Source: Mobula hypostoma (Eukaryota). From it: 64,000 nt of DNA. Shown here piece by piece: positions 99-44,339 of this stretch. The position numbers were made by a program, and so were the translations under genes. The stretch's first letter is position 1. Each line of letters begins with the position of its first letter. The notes beneath the pieces were generated by a model. It was not told where the DNA came from. It was given only the letters and a program-made list of their open reading frames with translations, and searched no databases. The stretch is from assembly GCF_963921235.1 (NCBI RefSeq), contig NC_086108.1, positions 15,066,001 to 15,130,000 on the forward strand, written 5' to 3'.

Positions 99-1051
99 AG
101 TAACGGGTGCCACCTCCAATGGGATCCCACCACTAAGCACATCTTTCCCTCCCCCCTCTCTCTGCATTCCGCAGGGATCGCTCCCTACGCAACTCCCTTG
201 TCCATTCGTCCCCCCCATCCCTCCCCACTGATCTCCCTCCTGGCACTTATCTGTGGAAGCAGAACAAGTGCTACACATGCCCTTACACTTCCTCCCTTAC
301 CACCATTCAGGGCCCCAAACAGTCCTTCCAGGTGAGGCAACACTTCACCTGTGAGTCGACTGGGGTGATATACTGCGTCCGGTGCTCCCGATGTGGCCTT
401 TTATATATTGGCGAGACCCGACGCAGACTGAGAGACCGCTTTGCTGAACGTCTACGCTCTGTCCGCCAGAGAAAGCAGGATCTCCCAGCGGCCACACATT
501 TTAATTCCACATCCCATTCCCATTCTGACATGTCTATCCACGGCCTCCTCTACTGTAAAGATGAAGCCACACTCAGGTTGGAGGAACAACACCTTATATT
601 CCGTCTGGGTAGCCTCCAACCTGATGGCATGAACATCGACTTCTCTAACTTCCGCTAAGGCCCCACCTCCCCCTCGTACCCCATCTGTTTCTTATTTTTA
701 TGCACACATTCTTTCTCTCGCTCTCCTTTTTCTCCCTCTGTCCCTCTGAATATACCTCTTGCCCATCCTCTGGGTCACTCCCCCCCCCTTGTCTTTCTTC
801 CCGGACCTCCTGTCCCATGATCCTCTCGTATCCCCTTTTGCCTATCACCTGTCCAGCTCTTGGCTCTATCCCTCCCCCTCCTGTCTTCTCCTGTCATTTT
901 GGATCTCCCCCTCCCCCTCCAACTTTCAAATCCCTTACTCACTCTTCCTTCAGTTAGTCCTGACGAAGGGTCTCGGCCTGAAACGTCGACTGCACCTCTT
1001 CTTACAGATGCTGCCTGGCCTGCTGCGTTCACCAGCAACTTTGATGTGTGT
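99..1051 (+). mobile_element. 5'-truncated Penelope-like retroelement (GIY-YIG endonuclease end, pyrimidine-rich 3' UTR, hammerhead tail)
   Basis: ORF 332..658 GVIYCVRCSRCGLLYIGET...HF...E...L.P.GMN; 12-bp direct repeat ccctctagatga at 87-98 and 1052-1063. Confidence 0.9.
955..992 (+). ncRNA. Minimal type-I hammerhead ribozyme motif (PLE-associated)
   Basis: tagtc-CTGACGA-a-gggt(ctcg)gcct-GAAAC-GTC-gactg: conserved core, stems I and II, palindromic ACGT stem III. Confidence 0.8.
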
Positions 1052-3450: not shown

Positions 3451-3600
3451 GCTCCTCCCTGGTGCAAGTCTTACCAAAAATAGTAGAAAACACCCATTTC
3501 TCTATTTCTGTGTTCATAAAAATGCTTTGGGATCAGCTAAGATACAAGTAAGTTAATAAATACAAGATGCAATGTATATTTAAAACTGGCTTATATTAAG

Positions 3601-3781
3601 CAACACACACAAAATGCAGGAGGAACTCCGCAGGTCATCATCTATGGAAAAATGTACAGTTGTTTCAGCCCAAAACTTCAACTGTACTTTTCTCCATAGA
3701 TGCTGCCTAGCTTGCTGAGTTCCTCCAGCATTTTGTGTGTGTTGCTTAGATTTCCAACATCTGCAGATTTTCTTTTGTTTG
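3601..3781. mobile_element. Fold-back short element made of inverted PLE tails
   Basis: Arms about 3601-3662 and 3679-3744; 9-bp direct repeat tatattaag at 3592-3600 and 3782-3790. Confidence 0.8.
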
Positions 3782-3895: not shown

Positions 3896-4016
3896 ATTCC
3901 AGAGCCACAGCCTGTCACCCTGTGTACTGGAGCAGAAAATACCAAACACTATGAGGAAGCAAAGAAATGTGTGGAGGAACTGGCCCTCTACCTGAAACCA
4001 CTTAGCAGCGCCAGAG
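3896..4016 (+). CDS. RC3H1: Roquin-1 internal exon (approx. exon 3): [40 protein letters not shown](G)
   Basis: Manual translation; tgcag acceptor, G|gtac donor, 121 bp, phase 0 to 1; matches recalled human RC3H1 ...[26 protein letters not shown]. Confidence 0.95.
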
Positions 4017-4807
4017 GTACAACCTACAATCTAGAGCATTTTAACAGAGTATGTTGACATCTCTTTGGGAATTTTATAAGCTCTAATCAGGAGCTTTACA
4101 TGGTTTACATATAGGATAACAAAAAGTTTGAAAGATTGAAAGGTTTAGATAGTCACCAAATAAAAAAAAATAGCCTGGTTCCTGTTACTGGCTTGCATCT
4201 ACTGTAACTGAAGGATGTGGGTGGAAAATCATTGATAACTGGGATGGTGTAACAAACTGGCATTGAATCTACTATGCTTGGTGGTTTCTATTGTGAAATA
4301 ACATATACAAAGATGCAGCCTCTCACCCTTTCAGAGTTGTTTTTCCAATCATCAGGTGTTGTATCTAAACTGAAGAGCTTTAAATAACTTGAGTTCTGAT
4401 ACTGTCATATTCACAGATACAAATCTCCAAGTTGACACCCATGTGTAATGCATTGTTTTATCTGGATTGTTAGCAATAGAAACTAGTCCGTGCATATTGT
4501 AACCCCCAGATGCCCGGTTGGAACTAAATACAAAACACAGAGAACTGCAGTTTCTGGAAAATCTGAAATAAAAGCAGAATGCCAGGAATAGTTTAGGTCA
4601 GTGAGCTTTCATCCTAATGAACACCAATGTTTGCAGCTGTGAAGTCAAATCAAATCTTAAGTGTAGGCTTTCTAACCTGGCAATGTTGGAAAAATCACTG
4701 CCTACTATAGTTTAGTGTTTTCCTCAATTTAATTCCTGAAGCAACATACCAATGACAGACTGAGAAAGCATATTTGACCAAAAATGCTCAAATCCACTTT
4801 AGCCATC

Positions 4808-6490
4808 TCAAAGTTCAAACTAAATTTATTATCGAAGTATGTATACCATATAATACAACCTTGCAATTCATCTACTCACAGACAGCCACAAGACAAAAAA
4901 ACGCAATAGAATCCACTTTAAAAAAAACACACAATAAAGACCTTCAAATGTCTAATATCCAAAAAACAAATTGTGTAAACAATAATGAAAGTAAAAATAA
5001 ATGCTCAGAACATGAACCACAGAGACGCAAAAAGTGAGTCCACAGCCACAGAGCCAGTTCAGCAGCAAGACAAGTAAAGCCGATCCAGGAGCACGGTGGC
5101 TGCAAGGCATCAACTTACTCCCAAACTTGGCGGTGTGGACCCAAGACCGGTGTGCACCACATGCCCGATGCCAAACTCAGGCAGAGGGAATGGGCTCAGG
5201 TGGGGGATCTTGGCTGACACAGAGAAGTGAGCTGAACACCAATTTGATCACTGCCCTCTGTTTTGACATTTTAAATCTTTTTATCCTGGCTCAGTGCTTA
5301 AATAGGCTAAATATCAGTTTGTTTTTTGATCCAGCCCAAGGTCTGCACAAGCAATGGCCATTGTCATATCTATATTCTCGAGAATCCAGTTCACCGAATC
5401 CTTCAGGAAAATGTAAAAATGCCACATCGTTCAGACGGTTCAGCAGAGCACCTCCCAAATGAAAGTTATGGGCTATGGATTGCAGTGATTGTAGTCCACA
5501 CATAAATTTAGTAGAATTTGTGAGCCGTCCCCAAAGCATTACGATATATCACCAACAACATCTTAGAAGATGTCCTGGGATCTCCATCATCATAGATACG
5601 ATTATTTAACAAATTTCAAAACAGTGAACCAATCATTGTCCTAAAGACCATCACTCCAGAATTGCGGAACAGCTTTAACACTGACTTCAAGGGTTCAAAG
5701 GTACAATTTAATGTCAGAAATGTATAAAATATACATCCTGAAATGCTTTTTCTTTGCAATCATCTACGAAAACAGAGGTGTGCCCCAAAGAATGAACAAC
5801 AGTTAAACGTTAGAACCCCAAAACTCCCCCCCCCACATGTAAGCAGCAGCTAGCAACAATCCCCCCTCCCCCCACCGGCAAAAAAAAGCATTGGCACTGC
5901 CACTAAGCACTCAAGTGTGCAGCAAAAGCAATAGCAAAGACACAGACTTGTAGTTACCCCGAAGACTTCGTGTTTCACCTGGTATTCAACATACCACAGG
6001 TTCTCTCTCTTCCTGATAAGGGAGAAAGGGGTGTCTCCATTTTCCCAGCGAGCATGGAGACATAACAAACAACTCGCTGGTTTATGATGTTAAAAGTCTG
6101 TTTTGTCGCTTTTTTTCAAGCTCTGTGCCTGAAGATCACAAAGATCCCGGGTCTCCAGGCACACAGCTGTAGATATTTTGACTCCCCCGACGACACACTG
6201 GTCTCCTGTCGTGACACCAACCCTCGATCCACAACTCCAGAGCCCCAAGATCCTAGGCTTCGAAATCCAAGCCAGACTCTTAGGCCAAGCATGCCAAACA
6301 GCGTCCAGCTATGGAACCCCAAGAGCAGGTCCCATTCCCGCTAAGAACCGTAGTCAGTGTGTAACTCCAGGTCAGGGTCTTCAAAAGAACCCTGAAAGGG
6401 AAAAGTAGAGATAGTAAAGATGGAAATAGATCTGTTTCTGAAAATACAAGCAAAGGAGTCGCCGTTAGGCGTCATTAACCCTCCTAAGCT
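4808..6490 (-). mobile_element. Two adjacent non-autonomous retroelement copies (about 4808-5570 and 5685-6490) with LINE-like (ttcaaag)n tails
   Basis: Shared tail ttcaaa...atttattatc, also seen at 35121 and 49395; no coding capacity evident. Confidence 0.5.
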
Positions 6491-8188
6491 CCGCCTCTAT
6501 AGCCAACAATGGAAAAATTGCCAACATGTGTCCTGTCTTCAAAGAAAGCGTATATCTCTCCAGTCTGAATCATCAGTCTACTGTCAACTATTAGTTAAGT
6601 GGAAGGAGTTGCTTAAAGGGCTATCATGTGTTTACTCAGCAATATCCTATTCCTCTGAAGTGCTATTTAACTTGTAAACCTCAAAAAAAAGAAGCAGACT
6701 TTAAGAAGGGAATAACCTTCCCGCGATAACAAGACAACATTTAACTGATCATGACATTCAGGAGCTTTAATACAGGTTGAAGAGGAAGGAAGGGAATCTA
6801 TCCAGCTTGATGAAGGGTCGACCAAAACGTGGACTGTTTATTCCCCACCATTGACTGGCTGACTTGTTGGGTTCATACAGCATTTTGTGAAGATTCAAGT
6901 TATTTCTGAAGGTTATTCCCTGTAAATATTACTTTAACAATTTCTATCTAGTTTGATATTTTTAATCACAAATGAAGAAATGTTAATGCATAATTTTTGT
7001 TCAAATTCCCAACAAGGAATAAATTAATTAAAATACAGGAAATAATGACAGATTTTAGTCATTTAACAGTATGATTTCTTCAAAATAATTTTATTCATTA
7101 TAAATCCTGAAGACTTGATAACTTTTCAATCAGGGAATGTAGCCAATTGTGTTTTTTCTGCACTAGACTCTTCTTGCTTAATAGCTAGGCATGTTTAAGG
7201 GGATGTAACACACTACAAAGCAAGCAGAATATATCTCTCACTGAGCAAGTTCCTTTGATCAGTTCTTCATTCTAGAAATGTGTTGATAGTGGTGAATATT
7301 TTGTTCATAATTCACAGTAACAGCTGGGAAAAGTCAGTGTGTATGACAGAACATATCTGATTTTAAGAGTAGCAGACTAGACCACAACTTCTAATCAGTG
7401 TTAACTTGGTGATGCTGTTGTTGCTAATTCCAAGGATTTGGACAAAAGTATCTGTTAACACTTTGTGTGAGGCTGTGTGATTGCTGCACTGTTGGGTGAT
7501 AAAGATAAGGCCTCTCTAGTGGAACTAAACCAAAACTGATACTGGGAGGTATTGCCATTTTCTGACCAAAGTTTATCCCTCGCTAAAGATACAGAAGCAA
7601 TATTTTGCTCAACGTCACACTGCTGTTTGAGTGTGAACTCAAGCATTCCTGCACTACATGTCAAAACCTCCTTCAGACACCCTACCTTTTCCCTACAACT
7701 CATCCAAATGGCATCTGTCTGCAAATGCAGTATCATCTCAACCAAACAAATCATTACTTTATGACATACCATTTTTAAAAATGTTTAGGTAATTGCTTAA
7801 TAAGCAGAGATTTGTGTTGTGTAACTCTGTACCTTGACCTTACACAGTCTTGTAGCACATAAACAAGACCTTTGTTCTACCTTGTTCATGCCAGCCTTCA
7901 ATTTCTATGTGTACTAATGCATCTTTACCAGCACTCCATCCATAGATTTCCTGACATGGCAATTCAAGTGCTCATTCAAAAGCTTCCTAATTGTTGTGAG
8001 AGTACATGCCTTCACCACACCTTCAGATTGTGTGATCCAAGTTGCAGTCACCCTCTGAGCGAAAAAATTCTTCCTCAGATCCCCTGTAAATCTCACCTTA
8101 AGCTTATTCCTTCTGGTCTTGTATGTAATTGGAATAAGTTTCCTACTACCTGAATTATTCTTGAACTTTTTAAATTGTATATTTTGTA

Positions 8189-9719
8189 CAGTGCCTTGAA
8201 AAAATATTCAGCCCACATAACTTTTCATATTTTACTGTCTCATTTTCTAAATTTACATATATTGAAGTAAAGTTGTTGAGCTAATCTACAAAACATTGTG
8301 CATCATGTCAACTCATAGAAAAACTCCAAAACCTGTCAACAATTTATTAAAAATTAAGACCTAAAATTACTGCACTAACTTTGCGATATATTACCTTATC
8401 TACTCACCCAATTTGGTGATGTAGAAAATTGGAGGATCATCTGTCTTCATTAAATTCATAAAAATAAATTCTCTTCTTTCTGTAAGGTCCAACAGTATGG
8501 TAGATTTTCAACAGATGAAACCACAATGAGGACAAAAGAGCATCCAAGATTAGTCAGGGAAAGGATCATAGAGAAGCACAAATCTGGGGAAGGGTACAAA
8601 GCCATCTCAAAGGCACTGAACATACTCGGAGCTCAATGCGACCATCATGAAAAAATGGAAGCCACAGCCATATTGCCTGGGTCAGGCTGCCCTTCTGAGC
8701 TTAGTTGCCAGAGAAGATTGGCAATTGTAAGAGAGGCTACTGTGACACCAACAGTCACCTGAGTGAACTGCAAAAATCAATAGCTACAACTGGAGATGAA
8801 CTCCATGGCTCCACAAACTCTAAGGCCTTGCACAAAAAGGGTATTTATGGAACAGTGGCAAAGAAAAAGTCCTTGCCCATAAAGACTTTGCAAAGCGTCA
8901 CTTTAAAGATATTGTAAAAATGTGGAAAAAGGTCTTGTGGTTGAATACTAAACTGAAAGCATTTGCCTTAACACTAAGCGGTACGCATGGTGTAAATCTA
9001 ATATTGCGCATCAGCCCGGTAGCATCATCCCTACTCTTAAGGTATGCTATGGAGGTAACATCATGCTATGGGGATGCTTTTCAGCAGCAGAAACTGGAAA
9101 TCTGGTCAGGATTGATGGGAAGAAGAATGCTGCTAAATACAGAAAGGTTGTGGATAAAAACCTGCTATCCTCTGCCAGAAGCCTAAACTGGGGAGGAAGT
9201 TAGTCTTTCAGCAGGACAACAACCCAAAGCACACTGCCAGAGCAACATGGAGTGGCTTCAAATGAAGAAAAGTAATGTCTTTGAGTGGCCCATTCAGAGT
9301 CCTGACTTTAACCCATTCAGACACCTCTGGAATGACCTCGATTCCTATCTATCACAGCTCCCAACTAAGCTGGCACAGCTTGAGCAATTTTCAAGGAGGA
9401 ATGGGCAAACATTGCTCCTTCACGTTGTGCAAAGCTAAGAGAGACTTACCGAAAAAGACGACTGGCTGTAATACCTGCAAGTAGTAGTCAACTAGGTACT
9501 GAACAAAGGGGGATGAATATTTTTGAACTGATAACATTTTTTTTGAATTTTTAGCTTTTTCATGCTTTACAATTTTCCCTGTTTTTTTTTTGGGCTCTAC
9601 TGTGAGAAAGGGAACAAGTGATTCACAAATAAAAATGCTCAGTTAAATTGATCAAAATCCCTGGTTGTAATACTTATGTGAACAAGGGGTTGGGGGCTGA
9701 ATACTTTTTCAAGGCACTG
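8189..9719 (+). mobile_element. Tc1-family DNA transposon, full length, degenerate transposase, inserted into a minus-strand CR1 fragment
   Basis: TIR cagtgccttgaaaaaatattcagccc / gggctgaatactttttcaaggcactg; TA at both ends; ORF pieces MRTKEH...GEGYKAISKAL, FQQDNNPKH, EWPIQSPDFNP. Confidence 0.92.
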
Positions 9720-15952: not shown

Positions 15953-16170
15953 ACAAACACAGGAAAGTCTGCAGATACTGGAAATCTAAGCAACCCACAC
16001 AAAATGCTGGAGGAACTCAGCAAGTCAGGAAGCATCTATGGAAAAGAGTGAACAGTCGACGTTTTTGGCCAAAACATGAAGAAGGGTCTCAGCCTGAAAC
16101 ATCAACTGTTTACTCTTTTCCATAGATGCTGCCTGGCCTTCTGAGTATCGTCAGCATTTTGTATGTGTTG
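15953..16170. mobile_element. Fold-back PLE-tail element, same family as 3601-3781, opposite orientation
   Basis: Arms about 15991-16064 and 16097-16170; imperfect direct repeat ttgcacca(t/c)t(a/g)ata at 15939-15952 and 16168-16181; degenerate hammerhead in the loop. Confidence 0.8.
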
Positions 16171-16699
16171 CACCACTGATATTTTACACTGGTTGTGAAA
16201 GAGCTTGAGCCTCCTGCAGCCGTAGTTTGGTCCTGAAGGCTGGCTCTGTATTTCCAAGTTTCCTGTGTTTCATCTCCTGCACTAACTGCCTTTTTCTACT
16301 TCTCAAACATTGCCTGTCTGCCCTTCCTCAGCTCACCTGCAGTGGAAACCTTATCCATGCTTTGTTACCTCTTAATTATTCACTGACTGGACTTTTCTGC
16401 CCCTCCCAGTAACTTGAACTGATCCCAGGACCTATTCCCATGAAGCAATGACTGAGCTGTCACTTTTTCAGTCTTGTTGATAGTTTTGTATATTCCTGGA
16501 ACTTTCTATATTAGTTACGTGTATTCCCGGCACACAATTTTTGGCAATACGTATTGCATTACTCATGAAGTACTCTGTAGGTTGTCCTTGTACAAATAAA
16601 ATGTTTAACTGGAGACCTGTGGAACTGTTTTGTAAAAGTGCGGGAGGACAAAGATTGGTGGTGTTGTGCACAGTGTAGAAGTTTGCCTAAGACCACAAG

Positions 16700-19079: not shown

Positions 19080-19345
19080 TAATTCTTAATCCTATCAGAT
19101 TCCTCCTCCTCCGACCCTTTACCTTTCCCACCACCTGGCTTCACCTATCACCTTCCAGCTAGCCTCCTTCCTGTCCCCCACCTTCTTATTCTGGCATCTT
19201 CCCCTTCCTTTTCAGTTCTAAAGAAGGATCACAGCCTGAAACGTCAACTGTTTGTTCATTTCCATAGATGCTGCTAGACCTAAGTTCCTCCAACATGTTG
19301 TTTGTGTTGCTTTGGATTACCAGCATTTGCAGGCTTTATTTCTGC
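19080..19345 (+). mobile_element. PLE 3' UTR fragment with mutated hammerhead (19213-19250)
   Basis: Colinear with 830-1050; cagtt-CTAAAGA...GAAAC-GTC-aactg. Confidence 0.7.
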
Positions 19346-23422: not shown

Positions 23423-25089
23423 CATTATGGGGAATAGCAGGAGAATGAAGTTGAAAAATACATTAGCCGTGATCAAATGGCGGAGCAGACTCAATGGGCT
23501 GAATGGCTTAATTCTGCTCCTATGTCTCATGGTCATAGACTATTTTTAACAGGAAACACAAGGGACTACAGATGCTTGAACCTGGAGCAACACAGAAAAA
23601 GTTGGAGGAACTCAGTGGATCAAGCAGGAGGCAAAGGGACAGTCGACTTTTCAAGACCTTTAGCTAGACTGTCTCGACCCTGAATTTCCTCTGTCCATTT
23701 TCCTCGGTAGATGCTGATTCATCTGCTGAGTTCTTCCTTTCTTGACAGTTAATGAATACTATCAGTCAAATGATATTTAGTTCTTATTCTTTCTTTGTCT
23801 GTTACAGTCCTACTTAATTACCAAGCCCATAGTTGTCCACTGTGAAGAAGTATTTACTTTTATTGGTGCTATCGTAATGTTAGCATTTATTGCCCATCTC
23901 AAACACCCCAGCGAACAATTGGTTATGTAGAAGCTAGACACTAAGTGAGGAAGGGAGGTTCCTTCCCTGAGGGACATCGGTGAACCAGATGCTTACTTGA
24001 TGACCTGGAGGTTTCATAGATCATTTGTGTTAAATCGATACTCTCAGCTGACAGGGTGTGATTGGAACTTGTGTCCCTAGATCCAGTAATGCAGCCACTT
24101 ATCTCCCTCTGTTATTTATACCTTATTTTGTATTTGCATATTAGTAAATAAGCTTATTGTACCAAGGGACAGTGAAAAACTTTTTGTACCATCCATACAC
24201 ATAATTTCATTATAACAGTGCATTGAGGTAGTACAAGGGGAAATAATAACAAAATGCAGAATATAGTGTTACAGAGAAAGTGCAGTCAGATAATACGGTG
24301 CAAGGACATAGCAAAGTAAACTGTACTAGGGGATAGTTCAATATCTTGTAACAGGATAGAAGTTATTCTTGACCCTGTTGATAAACACTTTCAATTTTTG
24401 TATCTTCTGCCTGATGGGAGGGAGTAGAAGAGAGAATATCCAGAGTGGGTGGGGTCTTTGCTTATGCTGGCTTCTTTACCAAGGTAGCGAGAAGTGTAGA
24501 TGGAGTCTGTGGCGGGAAGGTTAGTTTCTGCGATGCCCAAAGCTATATCCACAACTCTGCACTTTCTTGTGGCCTCCGGCAGAGCGTTTGCTGTACCAAA
24601 CTGATGCCTCCAGATAGGATGCTTTCTAAGTTGCATCTATAAAAATTGGTAGTGAAATGCAACATTCCAAATTTCTTTAGCATTCTGAGAAAGTAGAGGA
24701 ACTAGTGAGCCTTCTTGGCTGTGGATTCTACATGGTTGGATCAGAGCAGGCTGTTGGTAATGATGGACCAGAGCAGACTAGATAGGGGTGATGATGAAAC
24801 CTGAAGTTTCAACTCTCTCGACCTCAGCACTGTTGATGTATGCAGGAGTGTGTATACTGCCCCTTCCTGAAGTCAGTAACTGAGGCACGTTTATTGCTTC
24901 AGCTATGTTATAGAACTAGTTCAGTGGTTATTCAGATATTTGAATGTTCAGTCATTGTTATAGTGGGAACATTTACAGGCGATTATCTGTTTCCATGTCT
25001 GTGTTTAATTATTATTTGCTTTTACTGGGTCTGTGGTAAATGGCTTTACTGTTCCTGGCTTTGTGTTGACAGTCTGCTCACCATTACAG

Positions 25090-41730: not shown

Positions 41731-42199
41731 TATTCCGGACAAAAATGTGGCTTAAATTGCAATAAAGTGTCAGCCTGGACTAGAAAAGACAAGAACACCA
41801 TGGCTATGAGCACGTTGGTGCTTTTATCCACAGACACCAGCACCCCTATCAGGGATCACATCCAAGTCTGAGTCTAGGTTGTCAATGTTGGCAAGCTAGT
41901 TGACAGTGAAAATTCCTGAACTAATTTCTCAGGCAGGTGCTGTGCAGTGGGAGCTTGCAGAGAGTAGTGACGAGAGGTGCTTTAGCTGTTTTCATTCTTT
42001 GTTGCCCTCCCAAACTCTGGCATTTAGGTGAGTGACAGCACTGTGGGTGACAAAGAGGGCCCATTACCTCTTCTAAAGGTGTATTTAACCAGAGGATCAT
42101 TGTAAGGCGTTTTAGCACTGTAACTATTTTCCCCAGAGAACCCGCTGATTCTCACAGCTACCTGGGCAATTCCTCTTCCCACTCTATCACTTGTAAAAC

Positions 42200-42580
42200 G
42201 CCATCCCCTTCTCTCAATTCCTCTGCTGCATCTGCTCTCAGGATGAGGCTTTTCATTCCAAAATTTCCTCCTTCTCACCTTCTCCTTACCTGCCCATCAT
42301 CTCCCTCTGGTGCTCTTCCACCTTCTCCAGTCCTTTATCTCTTTCTCCAATCCTTTATCTCTTTCTCCAATCATCTTCCCAGCTCTTTACTTCACCTCCT
42401 CCCTGTCTCCCGGTTTCACCTATCACTGACCTCCCCTCCTCCAATTTATTGCTCTAACTGACTTCCCATCTTTTTCCCAGTCCTGACGAAGGGTCTCGGC
42501 CTGAAACGTTGACTGTTTACTCTTTTCCATAGATGCTACCTGGACTGCTGAGTCTGTCCAGCATTTTGTGTGTGTTCCCC
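42200..42580 (+). mobile_element. Internally deleted PLE remnant ending just upstream of the zinc-finger exon
   Basis: SQFL...ICSQDEAFHS-like fragment, pyrimidine-rich UTR, and a tail matching 950-1050. Confidence 0.75.
42478..42515 (+). ncRNA. Minimal type-I hammerhead ribozyme motif (GUU cleavage triplet)
   Basis: cagtc-CTGACGA-a-gggt(ctcg)gcct-GAAAC-GTT-gactg; perfect 5-bp stem I. Confidence 0.75.
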
Positions 42581-42782: not shown

Positions 42783-44339
42783 GTAAGTGCTATACAGGCT
42801 CACTGCGGACATTTGTGTTTCATGTCACCTGACTCTGCACAGTCCTGCTGGGAAAGTTGAATCTCCCCTTTTTTTTAGAGAAGTGACTTATTTTGCACAG
42901 ATTATCAGTTGTTTGATTTAACAGCCACTGTCCTGCTTTGTACCACGTCCCACATCGTGCCATTGATTGTGCCCCTGTTTTATTCCTACATTTAGTCTCT
43001 TGCCAGTTTGTAGGTGCTTCCATATCCTAAGTGAACACATGAGCCCCCTGCTGTACTGTGGAACCATAACCTACAGTACCTCAACTGAATGTTCTGCAGA
43101 AATGGTATTGAGAAATGAGAGCCTTGTGTTTCCAGGATGGGAATGGGAATGTCCAATACAAGAAGGCACTGCTTTAAGGTGTGAAAGAGAGAGAGAAAAT
43201 TTAAAGGCAATGTGTGAAACAAGACTTTTCTCCTCTAGCAAAGAGTGGAAGGTGCGTAAAACATGCTGCCATGGGTGGTGGTGGAAGCAGATATAACAGG
43301 GAATCGAGAGATGTAGACCCTGTGCAGACAGATAGGATTAGGTTAGATTTACATCATGGTCAGCACAGACATAGTGGGCTGAAGCGCCTGTGCTGTTCTG
43401 TGTTCTTGTAGTGCAGGGACACTGCTTCTAATTCAGGCATCATGACTCTGACTATTTCTGTAACCAACTAGCTATTAGACAGGGAAACAAGATTCAACAG
43501 GATTTGAGAATGAAGGGGATAAAAATATGACATTCAGTGAAAATTTTATCAGCCTATTGACATGGAATAGGCCCCACACAGCTATTTGTAGAGGTAGAAT
43601 GTGGGACAGACCAATGCAAGTCGGATGTAAGCTGGCATAATGAGGGAAATTTCTTTCCTAATCTCTTGCAATGTTATGAAAGCATACAGAGCATCTGATT
43701 TGTTAGATTTGCATTTGCTGCTGAAGCACGGAATGATGTAAAGAGACATTCTCTGGATGTTGCACAGCTGCCTCACAGAAACCAAGATAGGACTGTCAGG
43801 TGGTTATGGAGAAACTTGGTCAACCCCCATTCCAAGCACTGGGCACGTTATCCATGCAGATAGTTGCATCCTAGATCCATCACAATGAGATTAGTGAAAT
43901 ATGCATGGAGGGGCCATGTCATGGAGTATATGACAGAGACTGATGTGTTGTGGATGATGTTCAGGCTTATGGAGAGAAGACAGGAGAATGGGATTGAGTG
44001 GGAAAATAATAGACATGATTGATTACCAGAGCAGACTCGATGGACTGAATGGCCTAATTCTGCTCTTATGTCTTATGATTTTATGAAAAGAGTTTTAAAG
44101 GCAGCTTGCAAAAGCTATGTTAAAATATAATTGAATGTAAAATTGATTCAAGTGTTTAAATTTGTGAAGATGTTGCAGATAGAGAAAGACTGGCTATTTA
44201 CACTAGTGATACAGGAAACTGCTGATGCTGGAATATGGAGCAACACACAAAGTACTGCAGGAACTCAAGCTCAAGCAGCATCTCTGGAGGGAAATGGGCA
44301 ATCAATGTTTTGGGTTCAGACATCTAGACAAGGACATTC

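Follow-up and report, generated by a model that had tools for sequence, protein, structure and literature searches.

The Element, the Motif, and the Gene

The window analyzed here (the whole 64,000-nucleotide stretch of Mobula hypostoma DNA) opens on a transposable element that has lost its front and kept its tail, and that tail carries the small RNA motif with which we are concerned. Exact 12-bp direct repeats at 87–98 and 1052–1063 bracket about 953 bp as left and right target-site duplications, in keeping with the insertion that a first, sequence-only reading had proposed, and read depth climbs from the level of the flank to that of a repeat within bin 68–134. What lies between (99–1051, + strand) is a 5′-truncated Penelope-like element (PLE) of Neptune/Nematis type, recognized by tblastn to PLE proteins and by the ends of contigs, and it consists of the end of an RT-EN ORF followed by a 3′ pseudo-LTR, or tail. 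Family contigs part company with the window sequence at 109 (run X1, 175 loose ends) and continue beyond 1051 (783 in the same run). The letters at the 5′ junction, 99–108, deviate from the family by a few bases and are perhaps untemplated or the product of a template switch.

The coding part, 102–658 (+), is by protein alignment a decayed linker and GIY-YIG endonuclease remnant with a change of frame near 140–155. Its ORF at 137–658 matches the Pfam GIY-YIG domain at E = 0.0027, short of the curated cut-off, and has 14 longer PLE-type homologues, the best being an 89% match to a Mobula hypostoma protein and the next coming from Hypanus, Rhincodon, and Stegostoma. These homologues carry an RT upstream of the matched region (P0011 with PF00078), that is, their GIY-YIG domain is C-terminal to the RT. 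A C-terminal GIY-YIG domain, a CX2-5CxxC linker, and a CCHH motif are what has been described for the EN+ PLEs Neptune and Nematis (PMC8557442), and the relatives of the ray element match that description, with linker and CCHH motif intact wherever they align. The 99–1051 copy, in contrast, is broken at one residue in each: the first linker Cys has become Trp (codon 254–256; Cys in seven of the seven relatives that cover the site), and the first CCHH His has become Arg (the codon with 450; His in nine of nine aligned relatives). The RT is missing from this copy, and its Neptune/Nematis placement is a putative one, taken from the motifs of its relatives.

Beyond the ORF comes a pyrimidine-rich 3′ region at repeat-level depth (659–954, +), then the motif (955–992, +), and then the tail after the cut site (993–1051, +), whose 3′ boundary is set by the contig ends and the direct repeat. 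The stop codon of the ORF precedes the motif by 297 nt, close to the 300 nt first estimated, and the motif ends 59 nt before the 3′ end of the element. It lies in the pseudo-LTR, of which the upstream repeat is lost.

Read base by base, the 38 letters of 955–992 form a minimal type-I hammerhead with the anatomy originally assigned to it. Stem I joins 955–959 to 988–992 through four Watson–Crick pairs and a U·G; the 5′ core box CUGACGA occupies 960–966, with an unpaired A967 next to it; stem II joins 968–971 to 976–979 (G·U, G-C, G-C, U·G, and hence Watson–Crick in two of its four pairs) around a CUCG loop at 972–975; and the 3′ side of the core runs through GAAA (980–983), CG (984–985), U986, and C987, with the cut predicted at 987/988. 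Where a stem III might be expected there is only ACGU (983–986), and because these letters are a palindrome without a loop, stem III cannot close within one molecule.

This is the design that Cervera & De la Pena reported in 2014 (PMC4209133) for the minimal hammerheads (min-HHRs) of PLEs: a base bulged between positions 9 and 10.1, a palindrome at about 15.2–16.2, and a helix I of 4–5 bp. The 955–992 copy has their CUGANGA, GAAA, and U-H cleavage site (960–966, 980–983, 986–987), the unpaired base between 9 and 10.1 (A967), helices I and II of five and four pairs, and a palindrome without loop 3 that leaves a helix III no room; like the PLE motifs described there, which are mostly solitary in truncated copies and number thousands per genome, it sits in a pseudo-LTR. 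Core, A967, ACGU, and position in the tail together support its initial placement among PLE-tail hammerheads of the dimerizing type. One feature escaped that placement: the pair next to the core, 10.1–11.1, is G968·U979, and the conserved G-C is absent. G10.1–C11.1 is a typical trait that stands outside the search descriptor of PMC4209133, and helix II, with 4 bp and a G·U closing pair here, has 7–8 in S. mansoni according to the same paper. We conclude that 955–992 belongs to the PLE minimal hammerheads known since 2014, with one typical pair decayed.

Which host gene carries it? An exon at 3896–4018 (+), which follows an acceptor, encodes residues 78–118 of RC3H1 by its match to human Roquin-1 (E = 1.6e-19, vs. 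1e-7 for Roquin-2), and later RC3H1 exons, placed by short motifs, fall near 14.3k, 15.2k, 25.2k, and 42.7k, all on the + strand. That the element is sense to RC3H1, as had been claimed, follows from the strand of the 3896 exon; that it lies in the intron before this exon we infer, since the window does not reach back to the preceding exon. One presumed RNA run yielded a contig of 254 nt on the intron (depth 2.7) with no information on strand or ends, and we let it weigh on expression in neither direction.

The element has company. Nine tail loci lie in the 64 kb (930, 3600, 6802, 15960, 19150, 23554, 42440, 44216, and 52695), and two of them have the whole core: 955–992 and a second motif at 42478–42515 (+), which belongs to another subfamily and has U at position 17. 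The latter, 41.5 kb away in the same gene and on the same strand, is the nearest whole-core partner. It sits in an internally deleted PLE (42138–42576, +) made of an RT fragment (42138–42277), a pyrimidine tract, and the tail; the RC3H1 zinc-finger exon follows some 100 nt further on. Two further copies, at 19150–19340 and 44216–44330, retain a longer optional tail, which gives two classes of 3′ end, as for PLEs. The family as a whole is very abundant: summed contig depth in the motif bin is 8.2 (X1), 3.2 (X5), and 1.8 (X11) × 10^5 times that of the flank, ratios that are to be read as an order of magnitude and not as copy number. Such abundance looks far above the 4,000–9,000 given for coelacanth and Xenopus in PMC4209133.

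Folding, Pairing, and Cleavage

How might so incomplete a ribozyme work, and does it work here? By the double-hammerhead scheme of PMC4209133 and a review (PMC6765202), from which we take the mechanism, two motifs of an active element would exchange stem I strands while ACGU pairs with ACGU as stem III, and the paired motifs would cut after C17, probably with help from the element's protein. PLE min-HHR monomers were inactive and dimers weakly active in PMC4209133. In Poseidon PAc of Anolis carolinensis (PMC11167929), the ribozyme required the element's protein, insertion did not depend on the ribozyme, and RNA-seq showed no ends at the cut. PAc and the ray copy are alike in having a hammerhead in the pseudo-LTR and an insertion end tens of bases past the cut; they differ in that the optional 30–40 nt tail of PAc is missing from the 99–1051 copy (its sister copies have it) and in that PAc is a Poseidon-type element with measured activity, whereas the ray element, with its relatives' Neptune/Nematis CX2-5CxxC linker, is known here as sequence.

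The insertion itself hints at how it was made. It stops 64 nt past 987, which suggests an RNA template uncut at 987/988, and it does so without the longer tail that 783 family contigs of run X1 possess. Taken together, these two features fit target-primed reverse transcription that would have started at an internal site on uncut RNA.

A lone motif is predicted to fold otherwise than a hammerhead should. The 38-mer gives a rod, with core bases GACG paired to CGUC at the cut site, and the probability of an open core is put at P = 0.0006. In ViennaRNA folds of prefixes and contexts, a competing hairpin is predicted at 941–971 (+), with 941–947 paired to 965–971 and 950–953 to 960–963, which engages the catalytic core together with the 5′ arm of stem II; it would be complete by 971–975, ahead of the 3′ arms of stems I and II, and once at least 15 nt of upstream context are added, both stems drop to a predicted P ≤ 0.01. 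(These are models that leave out the hammerhead core contacts.) In short context, the stems of 42478–42515 fare better than those of 955–992: they are predicted to be kept up to 60 nt of context and lost at 100 nt or more. The letters that form the 941–971 hairpin seem common to a large subfamily; other subfamilies diverge upstream of 956 (X1, 477 loose ends). As modeled, the hairpin could be a subfamily-wide off state.

The energies of dimers are less discouraging. The 955–992 double hammerhead comes to −11.5, against a median of −8.3 for 55 relatives, and it is separated from the best alternative dimer by 18.8, a gap that 15 of the 55 equal or exceed. Dimer energies being no worse than those of its relatives, nearest-neighbor energies fail to mark 955–992 as dead. 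A G·U at 10.1–11.1 lowers the rate of cleavage, and our search of the literature found no paper that gives the rate cost of this G·U.

The reading that we hold to be very probably correct is that 955–992 is a relic of a standard PLE min-HHR, a passenger of a 5′-truncated copy in an RC3H1 intron that decays neutrally. It would be transcribed with the intron and, as a lone copy, would cleave almost never, having no partner, a G·U closing pair, and a core predicted to be paired elsewhere. The suggestion that this copy could self-cleave thus finds no support for the motif on its own: the monomer has no stem III, there is no tandem partner, the 10.1–11.1 pair is G·U, and the predicted folds hide the core.

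Is there, nonetheless, some leakage in trans? Given how abundant the tails are, 955–992 would pair with a second copy, perhaps aided by the protein of the element, and a small share of the RC3H1 pre-mRNA would be cut; the partner would come from another transcript or, within one pre-mRNA, be the 42478 copy, with which 955–992 may form a candidate pair. We consider this unlikely, yet it is not an idle thought. The core is intact, with all of its bases kept in the best-scoring copy of the window; both whole-core copies are sense, and their heterodimer is possible on paper at −12.8 kcal/mol; and an engineered intronic hammerhead is reported to reduce zebrafish mRNA by up to 20-fold (PMC11856399), which makes the question of an effect on RC3H1 a fair one, although nothing found here points to one. 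What weighs against leakage is that dimers cleave poorly in vitro (PMC4209133), that the non-catalytic dimer (−30.3) is far stabler than the double hammerhead, that the predicted hairpin would be in place ahead of stems I and II, and that 41.5 kb and several exons separate the two copies. Nor are sense tails depleted in RC3H1: the six tails outside hairpin insertions are five sense and one antisense, a small sample. If it were true, cleavage of host pre-mRNA by trans dimers would be a new route by which retrotransposons affect host genes.

A broader version of the same thought is, in our judgment, a long shot. With tails on the order of 10^5, many of them in transcribed introns, double hammerheads might form in ray nuclei, in trans or across a single pre-mRNA (955 with 42478), and cut host pre-mRNAs such as that of RC3H1 at a low level, and the 941–971 hairpin might then be an off switch that made it cheap for this subfamily to spread through genes.

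Descent of the Motif

One may ask whether 955–992 is a look-alike that arose by chance, without hammerhead ancestry. The check first proposed for the motif, a search with Rfam hammerhead covariance models, was run and gave no match, neither over the whole window at gathering score nor over 800–1200 at E ≤ 10, and in stability the 38-mer does not stand out from its shuffles (z of −1.24). The core pattern has one match in the window and none in 100 shuffles, a result that overstates the rarity of the motif because the motif itself supplied the pattern. We nevertheless regard a coincidence as very improbable, given the position of the motif in a PLE tail and the covariation found across its class.

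That class was drawn from metagenomes with a pattern that fixed the core, along with stem II at its first two positions, and left the remainder free. The scan returned at least 124 matches in at least 122 loci; those listed include no ray or shark copy and none alignable to the ray element. From the 124 listed, 101 distinct matches were kept (2 without 5-nt flanks and 21 duplicates were dropped, and likely chance matches were retained). Stem I has three or more pairs in 47 of these 101, compared with 8.8 ± 2.7 in shuffles, and the third pair of stem II is Watson–Crick in 79 of them, compared with 25.7 ± 4.4, in a mixture of types (GC 25, CG 20, UA 17, and AU 17). None of 5,000 shuffles equals either count, and this holds after collapse to 61 coarse types. 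Among 55 matches with a 28-nt core, which make up the alignment and the model, covariation reaches 0.514, vs. 0.175 when shuffled and at most 0.165 in slid controls, a shuffle comparison that relatedness among the 55 motifs inflates. The stems, that is, covary in non-ray motifs of the same architecture, in listed loci (at least 122) that include no ray or shark family.

The same relatives tie the architecture to PLEs. A PLE-protein match accompanies 14 of the 122 listed loci, and in several metagenome loci the motif lies 79–601 nt downstream of the end of a PLE endonuclease on the same strand. Model R1, built from the 55 non-ray motifs, ranks 955–992 top in the window (34.7 bits) and 42478–42515 second (33.8 bits), scores that come partly from the core that the scan pattern fixed. 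Among viral contigs the pattern had no match, and no relative was confirmed. In one metagenome contig with a near-complete PLE, the ORF is preceded by an inverted hammerhead and followed, at a distance of 141 nt, by a direct one (L002:1060-1087 and L003:1501-1528).

How much of this was known? Type-I hammerhead retrozymes related to PLEs have been described, one chondrichthyan genome included (bioRxiv 10.64898/2026.07.22.740005). A non-LTR retrozyme consists of non-coding units in tandem and has at least two ribozymes, whereas the ray copy is a fragment of a coding element with a single motif, and a motif and repeat search of the insertion found no tandem unit. Shark and skate terms are absent from two supplement files of PMC4209133, the available text of the manta genome preprint does not mention PLEs, and our literature search (in which one supplement was unsearchable) found no explicit description of PLE hammerheads for rays or sharks. 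The present copy, of modest import by itself, extends the 2014 class to a ray genome. Given the abundance of the family, rays and sharks would serve well as a natural setting in which to ask what purpose PLE hammerheads have, with constraint on the core, sense/antisense bias in introns, and insertion ends at the cut site as the readouts.

Age and Decay of the Copy

The copy had been called young, which holds in a relative sense, for its subfamily more than for the insertion. In run X1, 44,048 of 245,853 pieces are at least 99% alike, which points to a fairly recent expansion of the subfamily, and many family contigs are 95–100% alike. The insertion, in contrast, is probably not new. At least seven element positions, among 22 variant rows examined (252, 431, 450, 489, 690, 893, and 1002), set the copy apart from 96% or more of the X1 depth, and in a second species (organism B, run X5) the left flank continues in one contig as far as 126, while a second contig has its first base at 1028, where the one of organism A also begins. 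As these contigs enter both junctions, the insertion probably predates the split of the two species, a sharing that is probable and not proven because the overlaps, 28 and 24 nt into the element, fall below the 31-letter bar applied. The flank of the second species differs at 19 of 973 letters. Contigs of organism C end before both junctions, and no empty-site joint was found among the 15 examined of 1,375.

What became of the pair next to the core? Of the seven arms that can be aligned in the window, four have TG at 11.1/12, three have CA, and none has CG; TG and CA are what CpG decay produces. The reading frame of the shark protein P0008 crosses the motif, and at the place where the 955–992 copy gives Leu this protein has Pro, which calls for C at 979. 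Both observations point to an ancestral C at 11.1, and U979 may be private to this copy or the letter of its subfamily. Among the 101 listed metagenome matches, 11.1 is C in 81 and U in 20, the two letters that the pattern allowed.

RC3H1 is a dosage-sensitive immune regulator, and one might imagine that the host has retained 955–992 to tune the output of Roquin-1, much as has been proposed for the intronic ribozyme of CPEB3. For all the appeal of such a gene, an intact core, and an insertion probably present in two species, we find this scarcely credible, since at about 1–2% divergence chance alone would be expected to leave a 13-base core intact, another whole-core copy lies within 64 kb, the monomer does not fold, and there is no sign of constraint; of what would recall CPEB3, just the presence of the junctions in a second species was seen, repeat reads being unassignable to the locus. 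Of the 22 variant rows examined inside the element, none falls within 955–992. The evidence as a whole favors an RC3H1-intron copy that is probably inactive and decaying neutrally.

Elsewhere in the window, 3600–3780, 15960–16171, and 23554–23737 are hairpin insertions of two opposed PLE tails, in which the central hammerhead has decayed or been lost, and two metagenome loci (L028 and L094) have two opposed hammerheads 25 nt apart.
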